Below, piece by piece: positions 5,996 through 32,800 of a DNA stretch of 64,000 nucleotides. The DNA lies in NCBI RefSeq assembly GCF_046119375.1, contig NW_027362831.1:6324001-6388000 (forward strand). Direction: 5' to 3'. The position numbers and the translations under genes are program-made. Source of the DNA: Phyllobates terribilis. Taxonomy: Eukaryota. Under the pieces are notes generated by a model that was not told where the DNA came from, did no database searches, and saw only the letters and a list, made by a program, of their open reading frames with translations. Within the stretch, counting starts at the first letter, position 1. Every line of letters starts with the position of its first letter.

Positions 5996-6010
5996 GGGTT
6001 CCCTATCTCG

Positions 6011-7100: not shown

Positions 7101-7287
7101 AGTCCCCATTGACGGCAAAGTATGGGTATCTGGTGTCACCCCCGGCTCTTGAGCAACAACGTTAAGCATAGACACATTATCAAATGTTCCTTTAAGAGTT
7201 AAATCCCTGAGTTGGGCAGTTCCAAAGTTTCCCTCGGACACCTCCAGGTCAGGGATGTTGGCGTCAGGGGATGCTACCCCATCCTCA

Positions 7288-9920: not shown

Positions 9921-10329
9921 TACATCCACACTGTAAACCCCTCCTGACCCCACACATAAACTTCAGCTCATCCAGCACCATGACAACCAGCACAGCAGAG
10001 TCCTGCATCCACTGAGGCCCCTGATCATGTGACCCCTGACTCCTCCCCTCCTGTGACCTCATCACAGCTCCTGTGCGCACAGAGCAGCCATATATGTGGT
10101 GGCGGCTCTGCAGGTGGAGGTATGTGGAGACCCCCTATTACTGGGCGCAGGGGGCATTAACCCCTTCAGCACGGAGACTCTTTTGGGGTCTTGTGTTGCC
10201 CCTTTATAAGAATCATAAGGTTTTTGTTCTGTTTCCTGTAATAGATACATACGACCCAACTATAGAGACAGGAAGGGAGGAAACGTATTGTTCTCATAGT
10301 ACAGGACCCCTTTACTGCCCCAAATTGTA

Positions 10330-11480
10330 ATGCCCCCATTTTGCCCCTTATGCAGGATGTATGATGGCCCCACAGTGTAATGTCCCCATTATGCCCCTTA
10401 TGCAGGATGTATGATGCCCCCCACACAGTATAATGCCCCCATTTTGTCCCTTATGCAGGATGTATGATGCCCCCCACACAGTATAATGCCCCCATTTTGT
10501 CCCTTATGCAGGATGTATGATGCCCCCCACAGTGTAATGCCCCCATTATGTCCCTTATGCAGGATGTATGATGCCCCCCACACAGTATAATGCCCCCATT
10601 ATGTCCCTTATGCAGTATGTATGATGCCCGCACACAGTGTAATGCCCCCATTATGTCCCTTATGCAGGATGTATGATGCCCCCCATACAGTGTATTGCCG
10701 CCATTATGCCCCTTATGCAGTATGTATGATGCCCCACACAGTGTAATGTCCCCGTTATGCACTTTATGCAGTATGTATGATGCCGCTCACAGTGTAATGC
10801 CCCTTATACAGTATGTATGATGCCCCACACAGTGTAATGTCCCCATTATGCCCCTTATGCAGGATGTATGATGCCCCACACAGTGTAGTGCCCCCCGTTA
10901 TGCCCCTTATGCAGTATGTATGATGCCCCACACAGTGTAATGACCCCGCTATGCCCCTTATACAGTATGTGTAATGCCCCCATTATGTCCCTTATGCAGT
11001 ATGTATGATGCCCCACACAGTGTAATGCCTCCATTATGCCCCGTATGCAGTATGTATGATGCCACACACAGTGTAATGCCCCATTATGCCCCTTATGCAG
11101 TATGTATGATACCCCACACAGTGTAATGCCCCCATTATGCCCCTTATGCAGTATGTATGATGCCCCACACAGTGCCATGCTCCTTATGCAAGATGTATGG
11201 TGCCCCTTATGCAGGATGTATGATGCCCTCCACACAGTGTAATGCCTCCATTATGCCCCTTATGCAGTATGTATGATGCCCCCACACAGTGCAATGCCTC
11301 CATTATGCCCCTTATGCAGGATGTATGATGCCCCCACACAGTGTAATGCCTCCATTATGCCCCTTATGCAGGCTGTATGATACCCCCACACAGTGTAATG
11401 CCCCTTATGCAGTATGTATGATGCCCCCCCATTATGCCCCTTATGCTGTATGGATGATGCCCCACACAGTATAATGTTCC
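10330..11480. repeat. About 50-bp variable minisatellite
   Basis: Unit resembling atgcccccattatgccccttatgcag(g/t)atgtatgatgccccacacagtgta. A possible piggyBac-type left end (TTAA|CCCCTT) sits at 10157-10166. Confidence 0.9.
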
Positions 11481-12101
11481 CACAGTACCGCCTGAGGTCC
11501 TGCAGTTGGAATAAGTCCTGAGGTTTTACAGTTGGATTAATCCCTCTGGAGTTGGTTTTCCCTCTGCCTGCTCCCCTCCATGTATACTCTCGAGCATGTA
11601 TACAGGCATGTAGGGGAGCAGGCCTTACTAGATATTGAGGCTTTGTACAGTAATATATCACATGAAGATGATATCAGAGGAGTAAGATGTTTATAGAAAT
11701 CGAGATCAATAGAGTGTAGCAGACATAATGACTTCATGGAGGATCTTCTAAAATTCACTCTTACTCATAACTTCTTTCTTTTTGACAGGAAGTACTTCCA
11801 ACAGCTCAGGGGTACTGCGATGGGGAGCCCCTGTACCCCCTCATTTGCTAATCTATTCCTGGGCTGGTGGGAGGAAACCAAAATGCTCAGGGATGATTAT
11901 AAGTGGTGGCATCCATATATTGGGGCATGATATAGATATATAGACAACATTTTTATCATCTGGTCAAGGACGAGTGAGCAATGTCTTGAATTTGTCAGGG
12001 AACTCAATATCCATAGAATGGACCTTATATTTATATCAGAGTTTAATTATTACTAGTTGCCTTTCCTTGATGTACCAATCAAGAAAGTACGGGATGGGAG
12101 C

Positions 12102-12458
12102 CGGGGCTGTGGAGTCGGTAAGCCAAACCTTTGACTCCTACTCCTAAATATCCATGACACCGTCTCCGACTTCACGACTCCGACTCCCTCATACATGGCT
12201 CATGTTTAAGTGATAAATTTACAATAGGACACATTTTTCTCAGCTAAAAGTCTAGACCCTTAGATCAGGAATAGGAAAGACATTTATAGGACATTTCATA
12301 ACTTTCCCAAATTCTTATGAAAAAATATTCCTCACAAACTGCATTGAACTATTGTACCCAATTTATTATATATTTTAGGCGTCTGTGTGGGTCCATTTTA
12401 TACTGACTCCAACTCCGACTTCAGCAAAATGGGCACCGACTCCGACTCCACAGCCCTG
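12102..12458. mobile_element. MITE with C(A/G)GGGCTGTGGAGTCGG terminal inverted repeats
   Basis: Left cggggctgtggagtcgg and right ccgactccacagccctg, with internal ccgactcc repeats. No convincing TSD. Confidence 0.65.
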
Positions 12459-12759
12459 GTTTGGACCCTAGGGACACTCATCTACCATAAACTATTAAAG
12501 TGGGATAGCCACCACCGCATCCTACCAAAAAAAAAAAAACAATATCCAAGGGCCAATGTTTACAGTTGAGAAGAAACTGCTCTAATGTCACAGATATTAA
12601 TATACAGGCAATAGACATAAACACCAGATTCAAGGAAAAAAGGTACCCACAGTACATTTTGGATTCCGCACGATTGTTTGCAGAAAAACAGGAGAGAGAG
12701 ACACTCCTACATACCTAACCAAGACACCAAGAAAAATATGGGATAACACAAGTAATAGG

Positions 12760-13852
12760 TGTAGCGCCGGCGTCCCTGCCCTCTGCTAGGCAGGGACGCT
12801 GTTCCCCTCACCTCTCTGCTCCGTGCCCGGCGTCCTCCTCCCGCTCTGCTGGCAGCGCGCGCTCCTTCCCGGCCACTGTGCTTAGGGCGCGCGCGCGCGC
12901 GCTCTCCCTCCCTCTTAAAGGGGCCGCGCGCGCCGTCCTAAGGAGTCCCCGGCCAATGGCCGGAGGACTTCACCATATATAAGGCACCTCCTCCAAAATG
13001 GAGGTGCCCGAGCAATGTTGTTGCACTGTTCACTACTCTGCTTCAGCCCTCAGGTCCCGTTGCCAGTTACCTGCCAGATACCTGCCAGATTCCTGCCAGC
13101 TTGCTGTCTTATTCCTGCCTGATATTCTGCTACCTGCCTGCTAGCCTGAAGTCCGACGGTCTGCCTTACTACTCCTGTCAGTCTGTCTAAGGACCAGCTT
13201 GCCCGCTCACCTGGGAGCGCACATCAACTACCTGCCTGCTTGCCTGAGGTCCGACGGTCTGCCTTCCAACTCTTGTCAGTCTGTCTATGGACCAGCTTGC
13301 CCGCTCACCTGGGAGCGCTCATCTGCTGCCTGTCTGCTAGCCTACCTGGAGGCTCTGCCGTCACGTGCTGTGACCACCCGCCTGTCCAGTGACTTCTTCC
13401 CGCTCACCTGGGAGCGCTCATCTGCCGCCTGTCTGTTGGTCTTCCTGGAGGCTCCGCCGTCACATGCTGTGACCACCCGTTTATCCAGGGACTCTCGCCT
13501 GCTCACCTGGGAGCTCACTTCTACCATCAGCCGCCACAGGTCGTACCAACCCTTTACCCAGAGACTGCCCCGGTCACTTGCCGTGACCATCTGCCCGTTC
13601 ACCCAGAGACTGCCCCGGTCACTTGCCGTGACCATCTGCCCGTTCACCCAGAGACTGCCCCGGTCACTTGCCGTGACCATCTGCCCGTTCATCCAGAGAC
13701 TGCCCCGGTCACTTGCCGTGACCTCCTGCCCGTTCTTCTAGAGACTGTCCCGGTCACCTGCTGTGACTGCCTGCCTGGTCGCCACCCGCTCCCTTACAAG
13801 GACCGCCCCCTTGTATAGTAGCTCAGAGGTTCCGCCTCCCAGACCCGTTACA
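12760..13852 (+). mobile_element. Solo LTR (1093 bp)
   Basis: TGTAG...TTACA ends, perfect 5-bp TSD ATAGG (12755-12759 and 13853-13857), GC-rich front half and TATATAA at 12976. Confidence 0.85.
13556..13770. repeat. 45-bp tandem repeat (4 units plus a partial) inside the solo LTR
   Basis: Unit acccagagactgccccggtcacttgccgtgaccatctgcccgttc; each unit contains a GGTCAC-N5-GTGACC palindrome. Confidence 0.9.
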
Positions 13853-14294
13853 ATAGGAACTTGTGACAATCAGAGTGACCATATCTTTACTATCCTCAGA
13901 AAACACTAGGATGTACTTGTGGCCGACCTGGACCTGAGGGTGCTGTGTGATCTACTCCCACAATAACTTTCAGAAAGGGTTGGTCAATTAGAGACCGTTT
14001 AGTGCATAGTTTCTAAAAAAAAACTGCACCCAAGTGGACATGGCTAGATAGAAGAATCTGTGGTTTATTTAGATGTGTAGAAAGTTGTACATGTAATTGG
14101 ATGAGACCATGTAAATCTTTCTTGAGTTCTTCTACAGGTGAAACCTTTTTCCAGAGGGATTATTCCAACTGTAAAACCTCAGGACTTGTATATGTGGCCA
14201 CATGCACCTACCTCCTAGATTATGTATGCACGACCAAGAGGCAGTCTAAGAGGAGTGTGTAGGGGGCATTTGGGTGAAATACGCCATGGTTGGG

Positions 14295-14871
14295 TGTCAC
14301 AGGTGTGTCAGAGGTGACAGACTGTCGCCCTGCAGGGGTTTGCAGGAGATCTCCACCTTTGGCAATGCAGACAGCTGCCTAGATGGGAGGCTTTGTTTAG
14401 GACCCAGATTCTACCTCCATTTAGTCTGGGTGTATATATACCTGGTGTGTCTATGTTGGCGTCGCTGGGTATACTCATTTCTACTTGGAACTTGGCTGAA
14501 GCAGCATCACGTCCTCTTTGGAGTCTTGAGGCCGTGTGCCCTGTTTGGAGTTTCTTCTAAAGCAAAGTTGTAATTCCCCTGTGTTGTCTTCCCCTTTTGT
14601 CTTTAGAGTGCTAGCGGGGGTTGACTAGTGCTCATCTCCTTCCACCCCCAGCTATAGCCTTATGCCAGGGATAGTTGGGCGAGGCATGTGATGGGTGACA
14701 GTTGCGGAGGCTGTATAGGGATGTTAGGGGGAGACAGGGTGATGCTAGTCCAGATTAGGAGGTCACCTCTTCCCCCTTTTCCCTAGTATCTGGGCTCCCT
14801 TTCCCTTTCTCCTCTGTGTTGCACTCACACCTAGCGTGACTCACTGTGTTGCCCTCACACCTGGCGTGACA
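14295..14871. mobile_element. Solo LTR (577 bp) inserted in the Penelope GIY-YIG region
   Basis: TGTCAC...GTGACA ends and a 5-bp TSD TTGGG/TCGGG (one CpG-type mismatch). The Penelope reading frame resumes after it (TPLVRHMNSAH). Confidence 0.8.
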
Positions 14872-16499
14872 TCGGGACACCCCATTAGTGAGACACATGA
14901 ACAGTGCACATTGAGGTGAAACAAGAGACATTTCCTTTTGCATCATTGAGGTGGTTAAACCCAATGTGAGAGGTGGTGATCTCAATAGATGTATCCTCAA
15001 AAAGGAAAGTGAGTGGATTTCCAGACTGGATTCACTAGGCCCTAAGGGACTGAATGAGCAAATTTCCTATGCCTGTTTTGTATGAATACAGACCCATTCT
15101 GGATTACATTTTAGGATTTTATACTCTACCCATTGCTACTCAGTTCCCTGTGAACGAGGTTCACATATTGTTTTACTTCATCAAGAGATCTGAGCTTCTA
15201 TATCAGAATTATTTCTTAACAGTTATATCACAAATTCTACTATTTAGTAACTAACAAGTGTGGTGTTCCATGTGTATCTCTAATTATGCAATAGGGGTCA
15301 AATATGACCATTTAGGAGTATACTGTGGGCCACCATCCCATATATTTTGTAGTGATAAAGTAGATCCACATGCCGATTGCATGATGGGAGGATGTGCAAT
15401 ACTTGTTTTTAGTCTCCCGTGATACTGATCTCAGAGAGAGGATTTATCTATTGGTGGAATGCAATCCAATACCATATGCGCTCCGGTGTGGAACACAGAC
15501 ATCTGGACATGCACATTTGTGGACAATGATCCTAGATGGAATGATAACTGCGGGCACGCGCAGCCACAGGTACGAGTGGCGCGGCGGCAATCAGTTTATC
15601 TGGTGTTTCAGCATAAAGCACATCACTTCCCGACATGCACACTAGGTGATGGACATTATCGAACCTATAGCTCATGAGAAGTAGTGTAGGCGCAGTATAT
15701 TATTGTAGACAGACTCTATTCTGTATATCCTGTGACAATTCACCTCTAGGAATGGGAATGAGCCTCCTAGTCTGGGAGGGGTTTTGCATGAAGTGGGATA
15801 TTTAAACATGGACACCTGGCTGTTAGGCACACTATGCTGAACATCATGAATTATCATCCCTCTATCAAACCTCCTAATGAACCTGTTGGGAAAATGCATT
15901 GAGGCGGATTATTGCAACATTCTGTGAGTGCCATACCCTTTCCTTTATACATATTGTAGGGGTTTTACTCACTGGGGCACAATGGGAGGAAAACAGGAGG
16001 CATGTTCCATTAAAATTTCATGTGGGTTTATTACTTCATAAACCCAGAAGCCAAACAGAAAACCAAATAGCCTTTAGATCAGGCAAACAAAGTAAATGTC
16101 CTTAGCAGGTCTCTGCTCAGCCAGGCCTGTGTGGCACACAAGCTGGGGTAGCGTCCAGTGTCCTGGTTTGGTCTGAAGACAAACATACACAGGAGGCCTT
16201 CTACCTCCAAACACACAGACCATGTGCCAAACAACAGCCTCCATTTTATAGGCTGTTAACCACACCCAGAGGTGAGGTGTGTGGAGAGCTGGACCTGCCC
16301 ATTCTCTCCTAGCTACCCGTAACCCGGCTCCCAGGTGCACCAAACGATCCTCTTAGTGCTTATGTGCCCTAGAGAAACACTCAGGGTTACATCACAGAGA
16401 CCAGCCATCTGTGACACATACCTCCCATCGACTACGAGACCATTAGCCACCTTACATACCCCCCCCTCCACCTAAAGCCGTGGGCTTGACACCTTTTAC

Positions 16500-18900
16500 T
16501 ACCAGACAGGGGATTCTCGAGAGATCATCGGCATTACCATGTAGCCTCTCTGCTCTATGTTCTACAGGGAAGTAGGAGTCCTGTAGGGCTAAAAACCCGA
16601 GGGTGACTCTGGCATTTTTTCACTTTTTTCCCTCATCCATCTGAGTGGAGCATAGTCGGATAATAATCTAAATTTTCGACCTAACAGTACGATAAGGTGT
16701 CCACCGCACACTTTATAGCCGAGCGTTCCTTCTCTATGACCGAATAATTTTTCTCGCAGGAGGACAGCTTTCTACTCAGGTAGAGGACAGGGTGCTCCTC
16801 CCCGTGTATCTCCTGGGAAAGGACTGCTGCTAACCCGACATCTGAGACATCTGTCTGCAGTATAAACTCTTTCTTGAAGTCCGGGGGAACCAGGACCAGT
16901 TGCCTACACAGTTTAATCTTTTGAAAGGACGTCTCCGCCTCTGCAGTCCACTTGGCCTTGGCTGATTTTGTCCCATTAAGGAGGTCAGTCAGGGGTGCGT
17001 CCAACATGGCGAAGTTTGAGATGAATTTCCTGTAGTATCCCACGATTCCCAGGAAAGCTCTGACTTGCTTTTTTGACACCAGTCTCAGCCAATTTTGGAT
17101 TGCTTCTACTTTAGTATTTTGGGGTTTTATCTCGCCTCTACCCACTACATATCCGAAGTACTTGGCTTCTTATTTCCCCATGCCACATTTCTTCGAGTTT
17201 ATTGAAAACCCCACCTTCCTCAGAGCATCAAACACAGCCTGAATCTTTTCCAGATGACTCTCCCAGTCTGGACTGAAGATAATAACATTGTCCAGGTATG
17301 TTGCGGCATATTTCTTATGGGATGCAAAGATGCAATCCATAGCTCTCTGGAATTTTGCAGGGGCCCCCTGCAGTCCAAGCGGCATCCGGGCATACTGGAA
17401 GCATCCGTCTAGCGTAGAAAACACAGTCCTCTCTTTGGCTACCTGTGCCATGAGGATCTTCCAATATCCCTTCGTCAGATCCAAGGTGGTTATGTGCCCT
17501 GCTTCCCCAAGCCTCTTGATCAGCTCAACCACGCATGGCATGGGATATGCATCAAATTTGGAGACCTCATTCAACTTCCAATAGTCGTTGCAGAATCTCC
17601 ACTCACCATTGGGATTTGGGACCAAGACGATCAAGCTCGACCAACTGCTCTTGGATTCTTCAATGACACTGAGCTTCAGCATACAAGCTACCTCTTTTGG
17701 ATATCAACTCTTGTCGGGCCTCAGGTATCAGATAGGGCTTCAAGTTCACCCGCACATGTGGCTCCGTCAGAACCTTGTGTTCTATGACCCTTGTGCAGCC
17801 CGACAATTCCGAGAAGAGATCCCTGTTCTTCTGCATCAACTCCCGACACTGCTGTTTCTTGGCCTTCGTTAGCGTTTCCGCTACTGCGACTCCTCCAACG
17901 TCACCTTCTAGCTTGCACAGCAAGCATGGAGCTTCCACAGCCTCTCTGTCTTGCCACGGCTTAATGAGGTTGATGTGGTATATCTGGTACGGCATACGTC
18001 GTCCCGGTTGATGAACCTTGTAGTTCACTTCACCCACTTTTTCCACCATCTTATACGGCCCTTGCCACTTGGCCAAGAACTTACTTTCCACCGTAGGAAT
18101 TAGCATGAGGACTCCAGTCTCCCGGATTGAATTCCCTCACTCTGGCTGACCGGTTGTAGACTCTGGCATGAGCTTCTTGTGCCTGGAGGAGATGTTCTTT
18201 TACGATGGGCATCACCTTCACAATCCTCTCCTGCATCAGAGCAACGTGCTCGATGACACTCCTGTGGGGCGTGAATTCGGCTTCCCAGATTTCCTTTGTG
18301 ACATCCAGAAGACCCCGCGAATGTCGGCCATACAGAAGTTCGAATGGCGAGAACCCTGTAGAGGCCTGTGAAACCTTTCGGTTGGAGAACAACAGATATG
18401 GTAGGAGACAGTCCCAGTCTCTACTGTCCCTTTTTATGTCCTTCCTCAGTATACTCTTCAGAGTCTTGTTAAACCTTTCGACTAGGCTATCTGTCTGAGG
18501 ATGGTATACTGAAGTCCTCAGTTGGGAGATTTGGAGGGTTTTGCATAACTCCCTCATCACCTTACTCATATAGGGAGTTCCCTGGTCGGTGAGTATCTCC
18601 CTTTGGTAAGCCTGTTGGGGAAAAAACTTGGACCAACTCACGGGATATATTCTTTGCGGAGGAGTTACTCAGTGGAATCACTTCAGGATAGCGTTTGGCA
18701 TAGTCCAGGATAACCAATATAAATTGATGCCCACGAGCAGATTCAACCTGGGGACTGACCAAGTCCATAGCAATTCTCTCGAACGGCACTTCAACAATGG
18801 GCAATGGCACGAGGGGACTTCAAAAGTGAGAGGTGGGGGCGGTTAACTGGCACGTAGTGCAAGACCTGCAATATTTAAATATTTCCCGGTGACATCCGGG
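16500..18900 (-). pseudogene. Gypsy element 2 integrase core, RT and RNase H
   Basis: IAMDLVSP, ILTDQGTPYMS, VERFNKTLK, KWQGPY, then WSSLIVLV, GAPAKFQR, QTDVSDVGL. Multiple frameshifts. Confidence 0.9.
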
Positions 18901-18915
18901 CCAATAGAACCTTTG

Positions 18916-20962
18916 AAAAAGTTAATGCCTTACCAACACCAGATGCAGCAAGCCTCCATGATAAAGGCGGGGCCAGCACATGTGCAAAATACTGATGCAG
19001 ACAGCCACTCACTAAAATACCAATTCATGGAGAGGGTGGCTGTCTAGTATTCTACATGCCCACCGATGGAGTCTGCATAGGGCTCCAGTCACACAGATAT
19101 GTGCGATGCACAGTTTCTGGCTTGCAGCTTGTTGATGACACCCATACTATTAGATCAGGCGGGCTGCCCAGCACTATATACGTGCACCCCCACAAGACAG
19201 ACGCCCCAATTCACCCAGCCAACATTAAAGAGGCCTGGCCGCATCCTGCAAAAAGAATGTGCAAAAAATATGAAAAATAGTGTAGAAGATAAATACACCA
19301 CGTGAGGTATTGGTCGATATTTTGGCCAAAATACACAAGCTCGCAACCCAAACGTCAAGGGTCCTCATACTTGCGAGTCCTAACACTAAACATTAAAAAT
19401 GGTGAACATTGGACATAATTTCAAAAAACATCACAGTAAGGCTGTGTGCCCACTATGCATTTTTTAAGCGTTTCCGCAGCGGCAATTCCGCTGCAGAAAC
19501 GCTTAAAAACGCTTGGTAGAAGGTCTGCCATGTTCCCCAATGATAATCCCATGTGCTGTGCACATGCTGCGGAAATTTCCGCCGCGGATTATCATTGCGG
19601 AAAAATCCGCAGCACTACCAATTATTTTGCGGAAGCGCGGCTTTTTCACCGCCATTGACTTGCATTGGAACGCATGGAATCCGCATCATTGCATCTGCAG
19701 ATTCGGAATCCATGCGTTTCAATGTGCGGATGGTACCTGGGTTTGGAGAACAGGAGACTCTCCTCCTGACCTGGGTACCATAGAACCTGTAAAAAAAAAG
19801 AATAAAATAAAAAATATACATTATACTTACCTTCTGATGGCCCCCGGTGTCCTTAGCGATGCGTCTCGGCTTGCTGGCAGCTCGCGATGGTCTGAAAAGG
19901 ACCTGCCATGACGTCAATTAGTCATGTGATGGGTCACGCGACCGCTGACGTTGGCAAGTCCTTTAGTCTACTGCGAGCTGCCCACAAGCCAGGACGCATC
20001 GGATAAAGACACCGGGGGCCATCAGAAGGTAAGTATATATTTATTTTTTATTTTTTACCATTCTTTCAGTCACCCTATATAAATCCATGCTGGTTGCATG
20101 GATTTATATAGTGTTACCAAGTTGTCAAGCACTTTCGAAGTGATGCTAAAATCGCTTGGAAAGCGCTTGACAACCCACATGCGGAAATGCATGTGAAGAA
20201 CGCTTAACTTCCGTACAATCCGCATGCATTTTTTCTGCCAGGGAGATGCAGAAACGCTCAAGAAAAAATCCAGAGCATTTCTGCATCGTGGGCACATAGC
20301 CTAAAAGATAATGCCTTACCAACACCAGGTCAGATTACCAATGCACTGCAGGATGCAGCAAGCCTCAATGATAAAGGCGGGGCCAGCACATGTGCAAAAT
20401 ACTGATGCAGACAGCCACTCACTAACCTACCATTTCATGGAGGGAGTGGCTGTGTAGTATTATACATGCACACCGATGGAGTCTGCATAGGGCGCCAGTC
20501 ACACAGATATGTGTGATGCACATTGTCTGGCTTGCAGCCTATTGATGACACCCATACTATTAGATCAGACGGGCTGCTAAGCACTATATACATGCAAGCC
20601 CACAAGACATATGCCCCAATTCACCCAGCCAACACTAAAGAGGCCTGGTGGGGTATTTATCTTATACACTATTTTTCATCTTTTTTGCACATTTTTTTGC
20701 ACTGTGCATCACACATATCTGTGTGACTGGCGCCCGCCCTATGCAGACTCCATCGGTGTGCATGTATAATACTACACAGCCACCCCCTCCATGAATTTGG
20801 TACGTTAGTGAGTGGCTGTCTGCTTCAGTATTTTGCACATGTGCTGGCCCTGCCTTTATCATGCAGGCTTGCTGCATCCTGCAGTGCATTGGCAATCTGA
20901 CCTGGTGTTGGTAAGGTATTATCTTTTATTGTGATGTTTTTTGAAATTATGTCCAATGTTCA
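18916..20962. mobile_element. Unclassified non-coding insertion: tandem ~520-545-bp units plus an inverted partial copy, with a 15-bp TSD
   Basis: CCAATAGAACCTTTG occurs at 18901-18915 and 20963-20977. Removing the insert and one copy restores integrase QRFYW-PGCHR. gccttaccaacacc occurs at 18927 and 20313 (+) and near 20905 (-). Confidence 0.8.
19440..20301. mobile_element. PIF/Harbinger-type MITE (862 bp)
   Basis: TIRs GGCTGTGTGCCCAC / GTGGGCACATAGCC and a TAA TSD (19437-19439, 20302-20304). Internal inverted blocks at about 19820-19860 and 19995-20040. Confidence 0.85.
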
Positions 20963-22713
20963 CCAATAGAACCTTTGCACGATCCTTTCCTGCGTTTTTC
21001 CACTCCCAGATGTCCCCCCCAAGACATGTGAATGGGCCATGTCCAACACCTTCCATCTAAAGGGGTCCAGCACTATTAACTGCTCCACACTCTCCTCCCT
21101 CACTTTCTTGACCCGGTACAACAACTCCTTACTCATCATAAAATGGGGAAACCTTGTGTCAGCCCCCGACTCCTGTGCAACCCCATTTATAATAGTGACA
21201 TTATTAAAGACTTCCTTCAGAGTTAGGTCCCTATGTTGGGCAGACCCAAAATTCTCACTGGTCATCCCTAACTCTGGAATGGCAGACTCAGTGGGCACTA
21301 CCTCCTCATCCCCCACAAGGACACAAAAAGGAAACCTGTCTGACTCTGGGTGTGGTGATACCTCATTAGGGTTAACTTTTTTCTTATCAGAGCCAGCGAA
21401 CCCAGAACCCTTCCCCTAAAGATCCCAAAACAAGCAAAAGTCCCAGCCTATAATAATAGGGTGCAACAAGTCCTGAATGATGCCGACCTCGTGGGACTCT
21501 GTACCGTGGGCCATTTCAATGTCCACTCTGGCCTGTAGTGTAGTCTTTAGCATCACCATGAATGCACTGAATGCCGACATTTTTCCCCGGGATAATTTGG
21601 AGAAGAAGGGTGGCCCTCATAAGAGTCACCAGGCTCCCGGAATCTAGCAGTGCCGGTATTTCCCATCTATTCACCTTCACGTGACATGCTTGTGACCCCT
21701 CGCTGGGTGGACAGTTCACACTGCAGGCCGGATAAGCATAATATGAACATAATATGTTGTCCTATGCTGCAGTCCATTGACTCAAGGGTCAGGGGACAAC
21801 GGGCGTCTATATGGCCTGGGCCGTGGCACCTCCAGCAAACAACATCATCTGTATGGAACTTGGGCACCACCTCCCTCGTCCATTTGGACCTTGGAAGTCC
21901 TACCACCTTTTGGGCCTCCACCCCCTGTTGGGAACTCCAGCATGTAGTGGGCTGCCTTCCCAAGGAACTTCAACCCCCTGGTATCTCTCGATCAGTCCGA
22001 CCAGTTCATCAGCATACCGGGGATCACCCTGGGCAACCCAAAGCTGTATGGGCCTCAGCAGGGAGTGCACAAACCGGTCCATCACCACCCACTCTACCAT
22101 CTGCGCAGGCATTGAGGACTCTGGCTGCAGCAGGTGCAGGTGCAGCAAGTCAAACATTTGGGACGGAGGTGGTTTGTTCTGGTGATACGAACCTACTGTG
22201 CCCTGATAAGCATTGTCAACCTCAAGGGTGCAAGAATCTCACTTTTTAGCTTGCCATACTCTTTGGCATCCTGCAAAGCTAAATTCTGGGGCTCTCCCAA
22301 GTCCAGTATGGCGACAGTACCTCTGCCCACTGTTCTTGTGGAGATTTCTCCCTCTCGGCCACCCTTTGAAACACCATCAGGAAGGTCTCCATGTCATCCC
22401 CTGGGGTCATTTTCTGAAAAGCCCGTCATACCGCCTTCCGGACATGGGAGTAATCAGTCGGACCTGGGGTTGGAGTGCTCGTCCTGCCCTGGATGTCGGT
22501 TGCTAGAAGCTGCATCTGCTGACGTTGTTCCTGCTAGTGCTGCTGGATCTGCTGTAACTACAGGCTGTTGGTCTCCTGTTGATGCTGCTGCGACTGGACT
22601 AGGTGTTTCAGCAGGTTTTCCATTTCGTCTGGCGATGCTTGCTGGCTTGCAACAGACTTCCCCCAGGGCATGCAGTCCATCCTGTAGCACTCACACGTCT
22701 CTGCTGGGAACGC
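20963..22713 (-). pseudogene. Gypsy element 2 gag (SCAN-like), protease and integrase N-terminus
   Basis: MVEWVVMDRFVHSLLRPIQLWV, CCHC knuckle, EIPALLDSGSLVTL, and AHSHVLGG...ERIVQRFYW. Confidence 0.85.
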
Positions 22714-25700
22714 TGCCCGCAAGTCTAACACCAATTGTAGAAGTTTTACTCACTTGGGTGTGACAGGAGGAAAACAGGAGGCATGTTCCTTTAAAAGTTC
22801 ATGTGGGTTTATTGCTTCATAATCCCAGAAGCCAAACAGAAAAGAAAATAGCCTTTAGATCAGGCAAACAAAGTAAATGTCCTTAGCAGGTCTCTGCTCA
22901 GCCAGGCCTGTGTGGCACACAAGCTGGGGTAGCGTCTAGTATCCTGGCTTGGTCTGAAGACAAACATACACAGGAGGCCTTCTCCCTCCAAACACACAGA
23001 CCATGTGCCAAACAGCAGCCTCCATTTTATAGGCTGTTAACCACACCCAGAGGTGAGGTATGTGGGTAGCTGGACTCGCCCATTCTCTCCTAGCTACCCG
23101 TAACCCGGCTCCCAGGTGCACCAAACGATCCTCTTAGTGCTTATGTGCCCGAGAAACACTCCGGGTTACATCAGAGACCAGCCATCTCTGTGACACATAC
23201 CTCCCATTGACTACACAACCATTAACCACATTAGAATACCTTGATACATATCTGGTTTGGTGCCTGTGAAAAAAACACAGAATTTGAGCTTGGTTTAAGT
23301 TGGTATCCATGCAGCACATAAATGCATGTTTACTATGGCCATAAATCAGAAAAAAAACCTATAAGAAGAAAAATGATCATAAACTCTGCTGTAAATAAAT
23401 AAATAAAAAGCAAAAGTGCATTTAAATAAAATAGGGTTCTTAGTAACACTGTTTTTGATCAAAAATAGCATGAAAGCTATCCAACCATGGTAAAATGAAC
23501 CCATTCGGGATAGTCCTACTCTGTTTAATATTAAAAACCTTACCATGTATCAAAGCCTCAAACTTCTGTGTGTGAATCAGACATGAGATCTAACGTGATA
23601 GAAGATTACAGTCCGGGGAAGACGGGAAACATTCATATAGACGGCCGGTGGAGATGTAGTCAGTGAAGAACTCTGGCTAAATATGTTTGTAGAGCCGTAG
23701 TAGAATATGAAGATGTCGTAGTCCTTCTCATGAAGTAGTTATTTCTCATGTCACGTATAATGAATATCTCCTGCAGTATTACTAATGCCGATTGTAGTGT
23801 CGGTAAATGAGACGAGAATTAGCTTTATGGAAGATGAGTCTTTGAGAAACGTTTTCAGCTACATACTCCAAGGAAGAAACTCTATTTAAGAGAATTTTCC
23901 TTATGGACCCATCAAAGATGGATATGAATAGAGACAAGATGGCAGAGAGGATATTAAACCTCACCCTAGAGATCCTCTTCCGTCTTACTGGAGAGGTGAG
24001 AGATTCTGATGACGTCACATTACATCATTCTTATCTATGGGAATAACAGATGGACAGAACTGGAGAGGTGAGGACTCTGGAAATGTCTGTAGTGAGATTT
24101 ATTAATGTGTCTCTCCATAACCAGGATTACACAGTACTGAAGAAGACCTCTAGTGAGCGCTGTCAGGACCCTATGTCTGAGGGATGGGGAAGACCCCTGT
24201 GCCCAATCACAGGACCTCCATCTCACCCCCTGATACATGAGGACATCAATGACCAGAAGATCCTAGAACTCACCTACAAGATGATTGAGCTGCTGACTGG
24301 AGAGGTGACACTGCTGGGAATGCTGGGACATTATACAGTAACGCTATGAAAGGATCGGGGGGGGGTGACTGTATCATTGTATGTGTCAGGTTCCTATAAG
24401 ATGTCAGGACGTCACTGTCTATTTCTCCATGGAGGAGTGGGAGTATTTAGAAGGACACAAAGATCTGTACAAGGACGTCATGATGGAGGTTCCCCAGCCC
24501 CTCACATCACCAGGTAATAGACAGGACTAAATACACACGGCCTATAATTATCTGTATGTAAGGAATGAATTCAGTCCCTGTATGTGTTTCCTCCAGATCT
24601 ATCCAGTAAGAGGACAACACCAGACAGATGTCCCCATCCTTTTCTTCCACAGGACTCTAAACAAGAAGATCCCAATGTTCCTCAGGATCATCAGGTAGAT
24701 GGAGAGAAGGTGTCATGAGATCTCCCCTATGATGTGTAGACGGCTGTGAAGGTCTTGTGTTCAGTCTTGTTTAATCCAGCAGTATTATATGGTTTATACT
24801 TGTGTAATGAGAACGGTGGAGATGGCAGGATTAGAGCTGATCATAGATGTGACTTCTCCATCTGTCTGTGACTTTTACAATATTTGTTTCAGGGAGAAGA
24901 TCTCACCCATATTAATACTATAGAGGCATATGTGAGGGGTGATGAGCGGTGTAAAGAGGAGATTCCTACAGATAACCACCCAGGTGAGTAGTGACCACTA
25001 AATGCAGAGAAGTCACAGATTCTTCTCAGTCACCGGCTGTGGCTGCTTTATCGATGGTATAGTCCGGCTGTATCACAATCGTGTGATCACCATTTTGCCT
25101 CTAGACCACAACATTCTCTTCCACCCAAAACTGTTCAAATGATTTTGGGCATTGAAACCCTTTACCATAGAACTTACAACCTGGAGGATCCACCTACTCC
25201 CTGTGCTTAGGAGATTTTACCTGCCCAGATCTGTAAACCACAAAGCCAGAAAATCACTTAAAAAAAATATTATGATGGGCCTGTAAGAGAAAGTGGAGGG
25301 TAATGATGGTGTTGGCTTCCTAGAACCCTGATATCTTGTTGGATGAATCTCCCTTCTCTCCCTTCTGTGCTGCTGAATGTGCTCATATGGTCTCTACAAG
25401 ACCAGGTCCAGTCTTTCTGGCCAAACTTTACTTTTATTATCTACAACATTAAATGTGCAGTGAGGCCAAGTGTGAATTTCTGTACAATAACAACAGAGTT
25501 TCCCTTTATCCTGACTTTTCAGTTTCTTTTAAAACCGACTAACTTCAAACCCTATTGTGATAAACTAAACAAAAAAAACATTACACCTGTGCCATGATAT
25601 ATCTCTAAGCTAAATTTAAGACACCTCAGCTCTGCAGTATTATAAAAAGTTCTCTTTGAACATCTAATATTTCTTCTTGAAACTCATCTGACAGAAAATA

Positions 25701-25894
25701 TTGGCCCTTATGATAGTTTAGATTCCCAAGAGCCACCGAGCCCCATACTCCAATTACCCCAGAGAGGTTTCACCACTAGTTACTCGTTTATTACTGATGG
25801 AGACTCTTGAGATTGGTTATTTCAGTAGATGTGTTATTGTCTATAGTCACAGTTTTTGACTACAGTGGTTAGTTCCCAAAATACTCTGATTTAA

Positions 25895-27350
25895 CCCCTT
25901 CCCGCAGACAGTTTTGTGTTCCTATCAGGTCTCATTTTTTTAAATCTGACATGTGTCACTTTATGTGGTGATAACTTTGGAATTCTTCACGAAGGATAAT
26001 GGGAAACAAATGGACCTTACAAATTATTTTCCACCTTTTCTTGAATCCGACAGTACCCCATATACGGTTGTATCCTACTATCTGGGCACATGGCAGGTTA
26101 AGAAGGGAAGGAGCGACATTTAGCTATTTGAATGCAGATTTTGCTGGGATAGTGTGCAGACACAATGTATTGGGGACACTGTTCGTTGTCACCTGGCAGC
26201 TCAAAAGATGGCTACCACAAACAGGCTTGGCGCTATCTACTCCATTTCCCAGATCCCAGGGTTTGCCTTGCTCATCATCCTTTAACCCCTCTACATGTAT
26301 TTGGACTTAGACAGAGACCATCTAAGCTTGGGCCACAGTGTTACCTAATGTTCTGTGGTGTGAGATGGCAAGAAGAATAGTCAGATAGCCGGGTCAGAAC
26401 ATGGAGGTCAGAGAAAAGCCGTTAGCTGAGCACAGAGGACTGAACTAGAGGAGAACAAGGCTGTATCTGGCAGCTTCCAGCAATGTGCTTCCAGCTTTAG
26501 TAGGGTGTGGTGCTTTCTAGTTGGCTGAAGCAAGGAGCAGATTACTCCAGCTGGACAGCACACACACCCATACTGCCAGACTGGATGGTACTACTGGTCC
26601 CAGGCACTCTAATCTTAGTGGCTGGACAGACCCTGCGCCGCCCAGAGCGTCTGGTTCTGATGTCTCCTCCATCACCAGCGCCGCCTGCAGGATGAATAAG
26701 GCAGCTCCTGGTGACAGAAGCAGACGTCGCAGGAGCAGATCCCAGAGGAGATGGGACCCACCATTTACAGAAGCCCTAATATGACATAATAACAGAAAAC
26801 CAGAGCAGTAGAAATCCCCATAAAGTGACTCCATTTTGGAAATTATAACCCTCAGTGAAATAATCTATAGGAGTAGTGACTATTTTAACTCCACAGTCAC
26901 TTTCTGGAAATTAGGACGCAGTGGATGTTGGAGGGTGAAAATGACAAATATATAATTTAATTACCCAACACATAGTGCCCAGATTGTGCTCCAGGAGACA
27001 CACAACATCAAGTGGGTTCTTCTCATTATAGTAATGTCAAATACATGGATGCTGAGTGTGGTTTGGGCGCACTGCAAGGCTCAGAAGTGAGGGGGAGATT
27101 AGACTTTGGGAGAGCGGATATTGCTGGATTGGTTTATGGAAGCCATGTTGCTTTTCAAAAGCCTTTGAGCCACTAATAATGTGGCAACCTCTGGTTTTCC
27201 ATTGACAGATGATGGACCTGAGTGGGGACTTGTTTTTTGTGAGATGAGTAGAAGTTTTTATTGATATTATTTTTGCCTACATAACATTGTTTGGTGGCTT
27301 TTTATTCCATATTTGGGAGGCAGAATGAACAATCAGTTGAACACTACTAT
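25895..27350 (+). mobile_element. Degenerate non-autonomous piggyBac-type element in ZNF intron 5 (copies start near 38207 and 49502)
   Basis: Begins TTAA|CCCCTTCC in all three units. Internal blocks (ccattttggaaa, ctcagaag, atgtgtcactttatgtgg) resemble the piggyBac tail at 1700-3460. No right TIR was found. Confidence 0.5.
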
Positions 27351-27416
27351 CCACTGGTTCATCCTATGAGGTTTTCTATTAGACTGTGAGCTGTTATTGT
27401 CTTGGTGAATAATGAT

Positions 27417-27855
27417 GGCTAACATAGGGCAAAATTAAAAAAAATCACAGAAAAAGATACAGCCTTACCAACACCAAATCATATAACAAATGCACTAGCA
27501 GGATGCCACAGACCCCCATGATAAAGGGGGGGGGGGGGCAGCGCAGGTGCAAAATACTTATGGAGCAATCACTCACAAACCTACCAATTCATGGAGGGTG
27601 TGGTTGCCTAGTATTAAAGATGCACACAGATGAAGCTTGCATAGGACACCAGTCACACAGGTAGGTGTGATGCACAGTGTCTGGCTTAGGATAGTGCTTA
27701 TGCCCATACTATTAGATCAGGAGGGCTGCCCAGCACTATATAAGTGCACCCCACATGGACATACACCCCAGTACACCCAACCAACACTAAAATGCTAATG
27801 CATTTGTTATCTGATTTGGTGTTGGTAAGGCTGATTTTTTTTCTGTGATATCTTT
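27417..27855. mobile_element. Second independent insertion of the unclassified family seen at 18916-20962, with a 17-bp TSD (copies 39790-40220 and 51083-51515)
   Basis: TCTTGGT(G/A)AATAATGAT flanks it at 27400-27416 and 27856-27872. Forward unit gccttaccaacacc...ccaacactaaa, then an inverted ~55-bp copy of its start. Confidence 0.75.
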
Positions 27856-28288
27856 TCTTGGTAAATAATGATACTTACTCTGTCGCCTCATTGGGGGACA
27901 CAGAATCTTGGGTGTTATGCTGCTGTCCACTAGGAGGCGACACTATGCATAATCTTGAAAAGATTAACCGTGGCTCTTCCTCTGCAGTATACACCCCTGA
28001 ACGGCATCAGCCTTCTCCAGTTTTTGCTTACTGTCGCATAGGAGGCACACCTAAAACCTTTACTCCGTTTTCACTGATGGGATTACAGATGAAGAAAAGT
28101 GGGTCTAGTGCTAGACTCCCGGCATGGCTCCTTCCTCGGCCCCTTGTTACAGGGTGCACAATTGAAGTCGAGATGGCTATTCCCCATGTCGCTCCTTCCC
28201 CAGCCCCTCGTGTGCTGGTTCGAAGTCGAGACCCCCCTCCTTCCCCAGTTCCTTTCGGTTTCTGGGTTGAGGTCGAGGCGAGGATATA

Positions 28289-29883
<1,595 letters not shown>

Positions 29884-32800
29884 TAGCCCCCTGATGGTGA
29901 CAGCCAACCTCCCTAATCCCCCCCTGGGGGTATTAGGTTGAAACGCCTCAGGTAGGGCCTGTACAAGCACCAAGGACCCCAGCCCTGCTGCAGGCTCCTG
30001 TCAGGACCGGGGGAGCGCATGCGGGCATGATACAACAGAGGCACGGGCCCTCTTGTGCCCTGTTTCTGCGGCAGCACCATTTCTATGGTGCCTCAGGGGG
30101 ACTCTTCACAGGTTCACAGGGCCCCCCCCCTTTCGCTTCTACCCCACCGCTACCCTGCCTTTAAATCTGGGAAGGTCCGGTTCAGATTCGGCCCCCTCCC
30201 GGACTTCCGCGCCGGCCTGGAGTCCCTTTTGGCATCAGGCACCTAATTTAGGCCGAAGCCGCCACCTCCTCTCCCCGGCCCGCCCCCTGGATGACAAATA
30301 TTACACTTTACAGTGTCATAGAGGGGGCGGATCGAGACTGAAAGGGCGCGATTTTACACAGTTCTGCCGCCCTTTCAGCTCTCCGCCCCCCTTCTTTCTT
30401 AACTTTACTCCGGCGGCCATTATCTGCTGCAGAATAAGGGACACAGCCAGTCTCTGCGGGGCACAGGACTGCGGATCTTCGGCGCTGGACCTAGCGGCAC
30501 ACTGGTGGGATAAGATCACAGCTGAAGTTCTTCCTTGGCTGTGAGTCCATTATTCCTTATAGGCTCCTCTGCATAGCCTCCCCTGTAGGGCCCTCTGCAT
30601 AGCCACCCCAGTGCACTATGCCGGGCTCAAGGTCCAAGAGAACCAGGCAGGACTGCTATTATGCACTCTGTACAGCCTGCAGCAATACTCTCCCCAGCGG
30701 CAGCATGTATCCGCACTGCCAGGACTGCATCCAGACTACTGTGCCAGAGCCCCAAGAAGCCCCTGTCAATGCTTCGGTGTCTAATGCCACGCCGGAATGG
30801 GTCACTCAGATGTCGCAATCTATGACACAGTCTATAGATAACCTAACTTCCTCATTGCTTCAGGCTTTGCAGAGTCATGCCTCGGCTATGAATGCTACCC
30901 AGCAAAGGGAAAGCTCGACTCAGGGACATGTCGACCCGGGCACATCCACGTCTAGGTCAGGACGCAAGCAGACCCACAGGTCACGTTCATCTGCGTCATC
31001 CCATAGCACACGGTCATCCCCTTCTAGGGAGACATACCTTAGTTCCAGATCATCTAGACCGTCCCCTCCCAGGGACAAACAATACAGTTCTCCGCAGCGA
31101 TCCCTGAACAGAGAAGGCCTTCACCCAGCTGGAGACGCCTTAGCGATACACAGGATTCGGAAGGCATCTGTGATTCCGGCTCAGACAACGAAACTGAAGG
31201 GTCCCTGATCCCAATTCCCCCTAGCAATACAGCACTAGTTGAGGACGTAAACTCGTCCATCCATCAGGTGCTGGACATTTCTGATCCGCCCCCGGAGGCA
31301 CCACAACACAAGAAGGAGTTCTGAAGCCGCCTAAGGTCTTCTTTGACCACCCAGAGTTTAAGTCGATCCTTAAAAAGCAGTTCTCACAGCCTGAGAAGAA
31401 GTTTACCAATCGCAAATATCTGGAAGCGCTATACCCCTTCCCACAGCAGACCACCAAGGAATGGACAGATCCACCCAAAGTGGATCCCCCAGTCTCTAGG
31501 CTAGCAGCACAGTCACTCCTTTCACTGCCAGATAGCTCAATCCTCAGGGGCGCAGCAGACCGGCAGGTAGAAAGCATGGCTCGTTCAATTTTCGAGGCCG
31601 CAGGGGCCTCCCTGGCTCCCGCGTTCGCTTCAGTTTGGGTTGCCAAGGCCATCCTGGCTTGGGCCCAAAATTTACAAGCTAGCCTCCAAGTATCTGCTCC
31701 TGAGCTGTCGGACCAAGCGGTTCAAATAGCAGTTGTAGCAGATTACATGCTTCATGCAGCTCTGGATTATGCAAGGGGTGCAGCAGGGATAGCATCAAAC
31801 GCCATCACGATTCGGCGTATCCTCTGGCTACGGGAATGGAAAGCAGACGCAGCCTCAAAGAAGTCCCTTACGCACCTCCCGTACCGCAGTGGTCAACTTT
31901 TTGGTGAACAGTTGGACACGATGATATCCAACGCCACCGGGGGTAAGAGTACCTCTCCTCCCCCAACTGAAACCCAAACGCACTTACAATAAGCATAACC
32001 AAACTCGATTCCGATCCTTTCGGAACTCTTCGGGCTGGTCCACCTCATGGCCAGCACAAAATAGCAACCACCTCCCACGCAGGGACAACTCGTGGCCGAC
32101 GCAAAAGTCGGACAAGACCTGGCAGTCAAAAGCAGGCCAGTCAAAGTCCAAAGGAGGAAAACCTCAGACCTTCGCCTCATCATGACTCACGGACTCCGGA
32201 AGACACCCCACCTGTAGGTGGCTGACTTTTGCTCTTTCATCAAGTATGGCTGCCTATTACAGAAGACAGGTGGGTCAGGGAACTAGTGTCTTCGGGATAC
32301 AAGATAGAATTCACTTCCAACCCACCAAACAGACTCTTTATTTCTGTTCCCCCAAAACCGCCACACAAGGCTCGTGCCTTCGACCAAGCGGTCTTCAAGC
32401 ATTAGTCATAGTACCGGTCCCCTCGGCCGAGCGCTTCCGAGGGTTCTACTTCAATTTATTCGTAGTCCCCAATAAAGGAGGCGGCGTACGGCCCATACTG
32501 GACCTAAAGCAGCTCAACAAATATGTACGGGTACATCACTTCCGCATGAAGTCCCTTTGGTCCATCATTGCGTCCATGGAAAAGGGAGAATTTCTCGCCT
32601 CCATAGACATACAAGACGCATACCTGCATATACCAATTGCGCCCGCCCATCAGAGATTTCTCAGGTTTGCAATCAACCAGGACCACTACCAGTTCGTGGC
32701 TCTCCCGTTCAGACTCGTCACGGCCCCCAGAGTGTTTACCAAAGTCATGGCAGCCACCATGGATGGCCTGCACTCCAGAGGCATAGTAGTCGTTCCATAC

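Follow-up and report, generated by a model that had tools for sequence, protein, structure and literature searches.

What kind of element has interrupted the integrase region of a Gypsy-type relic in the analyzed window (64,000 nucleotides of the Phyllobates terribilis genome), and which machinery placed it there? An initial annotation described the insert as a non-coding, retrozyme-like element moved in trans by a Penelope-type reverse transcriptase (RT). We consider it fairly probable that the insert represents one old member of a family of protein-free retroelements with a unit of ∼540 bases, likely inserted by the RT and GIY-YIG endonuclease of a Penelope-like element (PLE), with an RNA predicted to be cut to unit length by a ribozyme of the hepatitis delta virus (HDV) type.

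Structure of the insert

The insert is 2,047 bp long (1,182 bp once a Harbinger-type MITE is subtracted). The host relic and the parts of the insert are as follows:

15953..23233, − strand: Gypsy-type LTR relic hosting the insert, split in the integrase region (LTRs 15953-16454 and 22734-23233, 92.5% alike)
18901..18915: target site duplication (TSD), left copy, 15 bp, from direct-repeat comparison of the junction zones
18916..19439, − strand: outer part of the long arm; a single unit, running from unit position m37 into the next unit as far as m39 and lacking 24 bp near 18942
19440..20301: later inserted MITE (862 bp, 14-bp TIRs, TAA duplicated at 19437-19439 and 20302-20304), which we take to be of the PIF/Harbinger superfamily by the TSD rule
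20302..20648, − strand: long arm, inner part; second unit, partial (m37-m383), 5′-truncated at the inversion junction
20649..20962, + strand: inverted short arm; m445-m392 joined to m260-m3, 3′ end toward the right flank
20910..20915, + strand: candidate splice-donor-like hexamer, also at 18929-18934 and 20315-20320 (− strand)
20943..20962, + strand: one-sided tail, m22-m3, at this end only, ending ∼25 nt upstream of the predicted ribozyme cut
20963..20977: TSD, right copy; its first 3 bases also fit the continuation of the element (microhomology)

The 15-bp repeat is exact and is the sole direct repeat of at least 8 bp between the two junction zones (18901-18915 and 20963-20977). The flanks of the insert match Integrase_H2C2 (E 2e-4) and rve (E 1.7e-5), both under the Pfam curated cut-offs; a paralogous Gypsy element (4469-7312) aligns across the insertion site, with the insert absent there. 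Comparison of the junctions and the domains in the flanks confirm the initial description of an insert that splits a Gypsy integrase relic between exact 15-bp direct repeats, and the size of ∼1.18 kb given for it without the MITE is borne out. Self-comparison of the insert again resolved three pieces: a full unit lacking 24 bp, a second unit that is partial and 92% alike, and an inverted partial unit (93%). The untailed 3′ end of the long arm faces the left flank and lies 14 nt inside the modal end of the family (m23).

All 30 of the top 30 matches in the genome were segmental duplicates of the same insertion event; beyond these, dispersed independent copies are present. One copy of a sister subfamily lies in the window itself, with segmental paralogues near 39790-40221 and 51083-51516:

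27417..27852: sister-subfamily copy, 80% alike, with inverted end; decayed ∼20-bp direct repeat at 27397-27416 and 27853-27872

A family of tandem and inverted units

Considering 69 unbiased loci, we saw that the family has an ORF-less unit of 542 bp. Its copies are arranged in partial tandems or inverted head to head, and their outer ends fall at two fixed sites. Unit periods were ∼505-550 bp, in non-coding head-to-tail arrays of up to 4.1 units. As had been stated for the insert, there is neither an ORF nor poly(A): the unit has no long ORF, its blastx comparison with 85 PLE proteins gave nothing below E 2, and no poly(A) or simple-repeat tail was found on family copies.

Copies were extracted with their flanks and tabulated for TSD, terminus and inversion; loci that were segmental copies of a shared insertion (33 of 79 in one set, plus L201) were left out. 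Outer 3′-type ends fell within a 63-nt zone (11.6% of the unit) in 66 of 97 cases, 5′-type ends in 4 of 41. Inversion was observed at 28 of the 69 loci, always head-to-head (the opposite-sense arrangement occurred at 0 of 69), with outward 3′ ends fixed, 5′ truncation variable and a junction that differed from copy to copy; the other 41 loci were non-inverted. The end modes were m23 and m520-m8 in subfamily A, s455-465 and s510-532 in subfamily C; the tail was ∼20-35 nt long in A and ∼60 nt in C.

TSDs of 11-19 bp flanked 14 of the 15 inverted copies with both ends intact. A TSD was present at 16 of 28 inverted versus 4 of 41 non-inverted loci (Fisher p 3e-5); in subfamily C it was also seen in 6 of 20 non-inverted copies. 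The TSD score was passed by 23 of 70 loci versus 1 of 200 chimeric controls. With four doubtful TSD calls excluded from the junction set, junction microhomology averaged 1.7 nt (35 ends), a weak excess over a rough chance estimate of 0.9.

The longest arm in A was 1,031 nt. A two-unit ceiling on templates, considered from the A arms, was overturned by multimers of the younger subfamily C: locus L430 carries 4.1 units, 97-98% alike, inside one 15-bp TSD, and is 95% identical to the subfamily consensus. At L422, another young copy of C, the arms are 99.7% alike.

A predicted HDV-like fold in the unit

Hammerheads were absent from the A and B consensuses in a core scan with one mismatch allowed; a similar scan found hammerheads in the PLEs of this genome. 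An Rfam search of the unit gave no ribozyme, only hairpin-type matches under gathering scores, and profiles of PLE hammerhead regions matched the four consensuses with E 0.9 or worse. As the type I hammerhead is absent, the family is not a retrozyme as defined. Of the label ‘retrozyme-like’ the tandem ORF-less architecture holds, while the defining hammerhead was not found and an HDV-like fold was seen instead:

19300..19377, − strand: predicted HDV-like ribozyme fold, double pseudoknot (P1 of 7 bp, P2, P3 of 3 bp, one-pair P1.1, P4 hairpin)

The cut is predicted between 19378 and 19377. The HDV-type nested order P1, P2, P3, P1.1, P4 is present and the pairing is kept; in the model, L3 has U, C and G at conserved places and J4/2 has a candidate catalytic C and the consensus A (HDV consensus positions were taken from PMC6326823). 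A descriptor, composed after the sequence had been seen, matched the window copy and none of 3,000 dinucleotide shuffles; in 0.91 Mb of control DNA it matched one family. Pairing was found in 96% of 749 cells versus 27-51% in slid registers. Identity between A and C was 87% in the fold and 61% elsewhere (76% in the best window outside the fold), the subfamily differences being mostly in J1/2, L3 length, the second J4/2 base and lower P4. Of 133 fold copies 106 were parsed (the 27 unparsed ones were left out); 104 of the 106 retained the candidate catalytic C, and the L3 pattern was present in the three commonest variants. The strict descriptor was passed by only 31 of the 133 individual copies, and the A consensus fails it. 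The unit RNA folded better than shuffles (z −3.9).

The fold departs from the published HDV descriptor in three respects: (i) C instead of G at position 1, with C1-G in 91 of 106 copies; (ii) a reversed P1.1 pair, G-C instead of C-G, with G-C in 96 of 106; (iii) a pyrimidine at J4/2 position 2 in ∼98 of 106, where a purine is expected. A descriptor requiring G1 and C-G P1.1 fails in all four consensuses. The consulted parts of the literature describe active natural exceptions for C1 and for the J4/2 sequence, as well as C1 and a one-pair P1.1 in active trypanosomatid ribozymes (PMC3774820, PMC4035085, PMC3185411, PMC6765202, PMC7936874); for a reversed P1.1 no precedent was found in the portion of the HDV-like ribozyme literature consulted.

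No compensatory change was found and covariation equaled that of shuffles, so that support for the fold comes entirely from conservation and geometry. Three copies with C at the L3 position of P1.1 had no matching change; a search for diverged folds gave 10 matches and 2 control matches, with no compensatory P1 changes; metagenome contigs gave 0 matches to the fold pattern. Descent of the fold from the hammerhead of one PLE group was also considered; the local alignment (p 0.007 at best, 32 tests) was lost with profiles and the idea is rejected for now. A conserved fold, predicted to act as a self-cutting RNA of the hepatitis delta type, is present in each unit of ∼540 bases.

In both subfamily A and subfamily C the splice-donor-like hexamer, a candidate on its motif, precedes the untailed end by ∼30 nt, and donor-like and acceptor-like motifs flank the unit junction in all four consensuses. 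The predicted intron skip had no match among the joints listed for contigs of four runs of one study (presumed RNA, a small share of words), and no spliced genomic copy was found among 10 same-orientation jumps. The same contigs contain diverged family fragments, which have no bearing on expression either way.

Relation to Penelope-like elements

A Penelope RT relic is indeed present in the window, as the initial annotation had reported:

11580..12760, + strand: PLE RT relic, broken

Its value as a pointer to a partner did not hold up: it has no DNA similarity to the unit and is therefore not evidence for a partner. Used as a query, the relic recovered further PLE families, none sharing unit sequence. 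A search for an autonomous partner with shared terminal sequence (108 PLE loci, three protein queries, few of the genome's families covered) gave no match better than E 0.05, and masked all-against-all comparisons showed no shared continuation beyond the copies. At locus L195 the PLE coding DNA that touches a copy is the target, as it resumes on the far side of the TSD.

The genome does contain intact PLE ORFs of 846-849 aa together with young copies of the family. Among its autonomous PLEs, taken as controls, 11 of 16 inverted structures carried both a TSD of 12-17 bp and, at a single end, a tail of ∼40-55 nt; of 2 structures in another PLE group, 1 had a tail together with a 16-bp TSD. Fixed outward 3′ ends, head-to-head inversion, a one-sided tail and TSDs of 11-19 bp all match the PLEs of this genome; mobilization of the family in trans by Penelope-type machinery, the central proposal of the initial annotation, is well supported. 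The PLE insertion signature in print has the same layout (parts of PMC8557442 and PMC3846280). Among A ends located no more than 30 nt from the predicted cut, 25 are upstream of it and 2 downstream; nearness of end and cut site is not a general rule, since hammerheads of the genome's autonomous PLEs are ∼100-930 nt from the ends.

Comparison with known systems

The comparisons below draw on parts of the publications cited. Endonuclease-positive PLEs (PMC8557442, PMC3846280) share with the frog family partial tandems, an inverted 5′-truncated copy, outward 3′ ends, a one-sided tail and TSDs mostly with inverted copies; unlike them, the frog unit has no ORF and no hammerhead. Tails are 30-40 nt in these PLEs versus ∼20-35 nt (A) and ∼60 nt (C) in the frog family, and TSDs are 8-10 bp in a rotifer PLE versus 11-19 bp, the latter equal to those of the frog genome's own PLEs. 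MRC1 and other non-autonomous Chlamys elements are similar in non-autonomy, multicopy head-to-tail form and PLE dependence, in a clade without canonical hammerheads; however, they resemble an autonomous family at the 3′ end, whereas no such partner was found for the frog unit, and the part of the source consulted does not mention an HDV-like fold in them (PMC8557442).

Animal non-LTR retrozymes (PMC7229834; 10.64898/2026.07.22.740005) resemble the family in their non-coding units, a few hundred bases long and arranged head to tail, in their long TSDs and in their occurrence in frogs; for them, too, PLE dependence, a ribozyme cut and circularization have all been proposed. A type I hammerhead in each unit is their defining feature, whereas the frog unit has an HDV-like fold and no hammerhead; also, unlike in retrozymes, similarity to a PLE pseudo-LTR was not found. 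The ribozymes of R2, RTE and L1Tc/NARTc have the same predicted double-pseudoknot topology (PMC3774820, PMC4035085, PMC3185411, PMC6765202, PMC7936874), and those of L1Tc type also start with C and may have a one-pair P1.1, like the frog fold. The LINE ribozyme frees the 5′ end of a linear RNA, while in the frog family, whose insertions bear PLE scars, each tandem unit has one copy of the fold.

Alternative explanations

The family could be a PLE-dependent non-autonomous element without a working ribozyme, similar to MRC1 of Chlamydomonas. In that case the conserved 78 nt would serve in protein binding or as a promoter element, or be a defunct ribozyme, and tandems would arise by template jumps or read-through. 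The end and TSD data fit this explanation equally well; covariation is absent, the fold has three departures from the HDV consensus, and PMC8557442 describes, for a clade without canonical hammerheads, non-autonomous partners of PLEs whose copies lie head to tail. Still, we judge it rather unlikely: five helices together with the L3 and J4/2 marker bases appear in the right order (0 of 3,000 shuffles), variation between subfamilies avoids helices and marker bases, and C1 and a one-pair P1.1 are known in active trypanosomatid ribozymes, going by the sources consulted. That a LINE (RTE, L1/Tx1 or similar) mobilized a short element, twin priming being the source of the inversions, we regard as quite improbable, even though the consulted literature reports HDV-like ribozymes from R2, RTE, L1Tc/NARTc and some SINEs, hammerheads from PLEs, and TSDs of ∼12 bp in L1Tc. 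Poly(A) or simple-repeat tails are absent, and the one-sided tail and the TSD range match the genome's PLEs. Moreover, in L1 twin priming the second priming site is variable, whereas both arms of the frog family begin at fixed sites, which argues against a LINE.

One could also suppose that the copies are remnants (solo pseudo-LTRs) left by truncation of an autonomous PLE with the repeat in its 3′ region, given that the PLE sampling took in only a few of the families in this genome (52,862 GIY-YIG candidates). This is very improbable: arms longer than one unit pass into the next unit, up to 4.1 units, the masked comparisons showed no shared continuation, and PLE coding DNA found at a copy was the target, as in L195. 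Although inverted copies resemble long TIRs, origin as a long-TIR DNA transposon, or from double-strand-break repair with filler DNA, has hardly any likelihood, as no fixed short TSD was seen, inversion is lacking at 41 of 69 loci, and there are units in tandem. A TIR transposon with a fixed short TSD and filler repair had been named initially as explanations that could displace the retroelement; both are already contradicted because TSD lengths (11-19 bp) and junctions vary.

Proposed mechanism

For a PLE-mobilized family with an HDV-like ribozyme, the cycle might run as follows. Tandem copies would be transcribed through and self-cleavage would release unit-length RNA, which a host ligase may circularize, by analogy with hammerhead retrozymes. 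The PLE endonuclease would nick the two target strands ∼15 bp apart, and each 3′ end would prime cDNA at its own fixed RNA site, one ∼14-25 nt upstream of the cut, the other ∼30 nt past the donor-like hexamer; two separate fixed sites would result in a one-sided tail. The RT would continue past the unit boundary to yield 1 to 4 units, although uncut tandem transcripts or template jumps could be an alternative source of multimers. Finally, the two cDNAs would be joined head to head, with gap filling producing the TSD. Between A and C the tail lengthens from ∼25 to ∼60 nt, yet the tailed end keeps its distance of ∼14-25 nt to the ribozyme and the untailed end its ∼30 nt to one landmark; with these distances constant, the two priming sites look independently placed.

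The family is likely an HDV-ribozyme counterpart of retrozymes. The full picture we put forward tentatively, as something that may or may not hold: a retrozyme-like circular-RNA retroelement in which an HDV-type ribozyme with reversed P1.1 replaces the hammerhead, copied round the circle by Penelope machinery from two separate priming sites and still young in P. terribilis.

Implications

The consulted literature divides self-cleaving ribozymes by host, with HDV-like ribozymes in LINEs and hammerheads in PLEs and retrozymes. No report of an HDV ribozyme in a PLE or retrozyme was found in the texts covered; the supplementary P1.1 figure of PMC4035085 and the Xenopus tables of 10.64898/2026.07.22.740005 may bear on the matter. 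An HDV-like fold in a tandem element with PLE scars would break this division and, if true, would join the ribozyme class of LINEs and deltaviruses to the PLE and retrozyme life cycle; tandem families considered ‘ribozyme-less’ may then conceal folds overlooked by standard descriptors. The end positions inform the unsolved mechanism of PLE insertion. Furthermore, the family would be a case, encoded in a vertebrate genome, of an HDV-type ribozyme carried by a small RNA that is probably circular; this bears on the source of ribozymes in deltavirus-like agents.

The insertion and its genomic copies

The 2,047-bp insert (18916-20962) is flanked by an exact 15-bp direct repeat (18901-18915 and 20963-20977), the only repeat of at least 8 bp spanning both junctions. 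Removal of an 862-bp MITE with its TAA duplication leaves 1,182 bp, and the unit, repeated head-to-tail, measures 542 bp; the initial annotation had given ~1.18 kb and ~520-545 bp. Its claims of the 15-bp repeat and of an interrupted Gypsy integrase are likewise borne out, as integrase sequence from a Gypsy relic lies on both sides and a Gypsy paralogue inside the window lacks the insert. The host LTRs are 92.5% identical and the units within the insert 92-93% identical to each other; judged from these identities, the insertion is old, roughly of the age of its Gypsy host.

In this 10.6-Gb genome, the region comprises clustered zinc-finger genes and has large internal duplications. The best 30 genome matches of the unit all had the same Gypsy flanks, and at 10 loci extended by 7-10 kb per side homology to the window continued beyond at least one LTR into adjacent DNA; these copies are therefore segmental duplicates, not transpositions. 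For the same reason the numbers of exact matches (466 for a terminal 34-mer, 675 for a mid-unit 20-mer) exceed the number of insertion events. Thus the genome search that had been proposed returned, at its top, duplicates of one event, but independent dispersed copies could be sampled too: an unbiased sample of 70 loci was drawn from the earlier entries of the mid-unit match list, and one was removed as a repeat event, leaving 69.

A Gypsy-plus-zinc-finger block (window 10318-29438, loci L061-L080) has many genomic copies at 92-100% identity, and on contig C12 pattern matches are spaced every 30-45 kb, or multiples thereof. A second insertion (L033, L040, L087, L089, L094-L096, L100, L200, L201) was likewise amplified together with flanking DNA; in some of its duplicates the inner arms are partly deleted and the same 15-bp TSD is retained. 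An element at 28287-29885, inside a duplicated block, has a 354-aa open frame and 47-bp inverted ends; from its motifs we take it to be Tc1/mariner-like. Two relics (29921-35095 and 40674-45968), 93% identical, with RT and tyrosine-recombinase-like frames, are presumably DIRS-like, again by motifs. In runs X1 and X2, aligned on locus L050, contigs of a diverged relative of the unit have depths of ~1,700-1,900, well above most others; that the runs are RNA is our guess.

Insertion scars and the Penelope-like control

Outer ends of one polarity fell inside a 63-nt zone in 66 of 97 cases (41 near unit position m23, 25 at m520-m8), against 4 of 41 for the opposite polarity. Inverted loci made up 28 of the 69, the fixed ends facing outward in all. 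Among inverted copies whose two ends are both intact, 14 of 15 had a TSD of 11-19 bp (median 15 in the unit-family sample), versus 4 of 41 non-inverted ones, under a scoring that 1 of 200 chimeric controls passes. L195, the one remaining, likewise shows a repeat, of 14 bp, if a small tail duplication is allowed; it interrupts a PLE ORF that continues past the repeat. An extra 20-35 nt is usually present at a single end. This layout is the one published for PLEs, in which units stand in partial tandem, one copy is inverted and 5'-truncated, and the tail is one-sided (PMC8557442 and PMC3846280).

As a control, a protein-query search of the same genome gave PLE families that are young and whose open frames span 803-854 aa; the one ORF examined matched RVT_1 and GIY-YIG, below curated cut-offs. 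Among their inverted structures 11 of 16 had a 12-17-bp TSD and a ~40-55-nt tail at one end; a second PLE group had a 16-bp TSD in one of two. The control PLEs contain hammerheads. No sequence common to them and the unit was found in the several PLE families sampled, and the PLE partner is therefore deduced from the insertion scar: very probably, PLE machinery mobilises the family in trans. The window's own PLE reverse transcriptase has frog proteins, for the most part dendrobatid, as its closest named relatives.

Several young PLE families (L260-L337, L290-L307) carry intact 803-854-aa ORFs as well as hammerheads, and their inverted arms reach 100% identity; they are probably still active. 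Behind the tail of a full-length PLE (L306 and L307), an ATG and a coding-looking stretch of ~700 nt begin ~60 nt past the element end and reach a long ORF, resembling an overlapping second upstream ORF.

A predicted HDV-like fold

A core scan found no hammerhead in the unit, and Rfam searches gave no ribozyme match. The unit does contain a candidate fold:

19377-19300, minus strand (with its 3' ends pointing outward): predicted HDV-like double pseudoknot

The descriptor, composed after the sequence had been inspected, matched the window copy; none of 3,000 shuffles passed it, and in 0.91 Mb of PLE loci it picked out one family. A core-pattern search brought in further subfamilies, C with a 538-bp unit and D with one of 505 bp; the window copy belongs to A.

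It is fairly likely, on the modelled structure, that the fold is an HDV-like ribozyme, active now or formerly; the main rival is a PLE parasite without a ribozyme. Bearing on the choice, A and C are 87% identical within the fold and 61% over the remainder, and in 30 aligned copies 96% of cells keep the pairing; covariation in these copies was not above shuffles, because the helices hardly vary. The descriptor was passed by 31 of 133 individual copies; the majority are decayed. We liken the loop to that of the CPEB3 ribozyme. Variation is mainly at J1/2, L3 length, the second J4/2 base and lower P4; in R2 ribozymes P4 and most of J4/2 are unconstrained (PMC3774820, in part). The unit fold departs from a published HDV descriptor (PMC6326823) in three places: position 1 is C, the P1.1 pair is reversed, and a pyrimidine follows the catalytic C. 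Active L1Tc-type ribozymes start with C and may form a one-pair P1.1; for the reversed pair we found no precedent in the accessible portions of the LINE HDV-like ribozyme literature searched.

A PLE 3' UTR (L300:3922-3990) and its inverted copy satisfy a relaxed HDV descriptor, which may be chance or a second fold.

Ends relative to the fold and template RNA

Subfamily A ends lay within 30 nt upstream of the predicted cut in 25 cases and within 30 nt downstream in 2. Among 50 subfamily C 3' ends, a sample drawn using fold probes and informative for the upstream side, not the downstream, 22 were 6-28 nt and 18 were 73-83 nt upstream. The untailed end lies ~30 nt beyond a donor-like hexamer in A and C alike; tail length thus tracks the spacer between both landmarks. 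In each of the four subfamilies, the unit junction and the fold lie between acceptor-like (unit s102-129, window ~19246-19275) and donor-like (s412-466, window 20910-20915) motifs, the D donor being GC-type; the pair recalls the intron over the pseudo-LTR boundary of Penelope and Chlamys-3 (PMC8557442, in part).

One young subfamily C copy, L430, has 4.1 units inside one 15-bp TSD, more alike mutually than to the consensus, which fits one template read round, but also an uncut tandem transcript. By analogy, we lean slightly towards a circular template RNA; circularisation would be a step borrowed from hammerhead retrozymes, whose RNAs are ligated by RtcB in vitro (PMC7229834, in part). Arms of another, L422, are 99.7% identical, and the family has therefore moved recently.

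Frog non-autonomous tandem elements dependent on PLEs are already known, with the hammerhead as defining feature (available text of Li, Clavereau and Pollet 2026, 10.64898/2026.07.22.740005). HDV-type ribozymes are reported from LINEs (PMC3774820, PMC4035085, PMC3185411, PMC6765202, PMC7936874, each in part); the literature searched, of incomplete coverage and without repeat databases, contained no report of one in a PLE or retrozyme. Of the proposed non-autonomous retrozyme-like element moved by a Penelope-type RT, the PLE-type scar stands, but the hammerhead is absent, so the retrozyme definition does not extend to it: the family behaves as a non-LTR retrozyme, yet by definition is not one.
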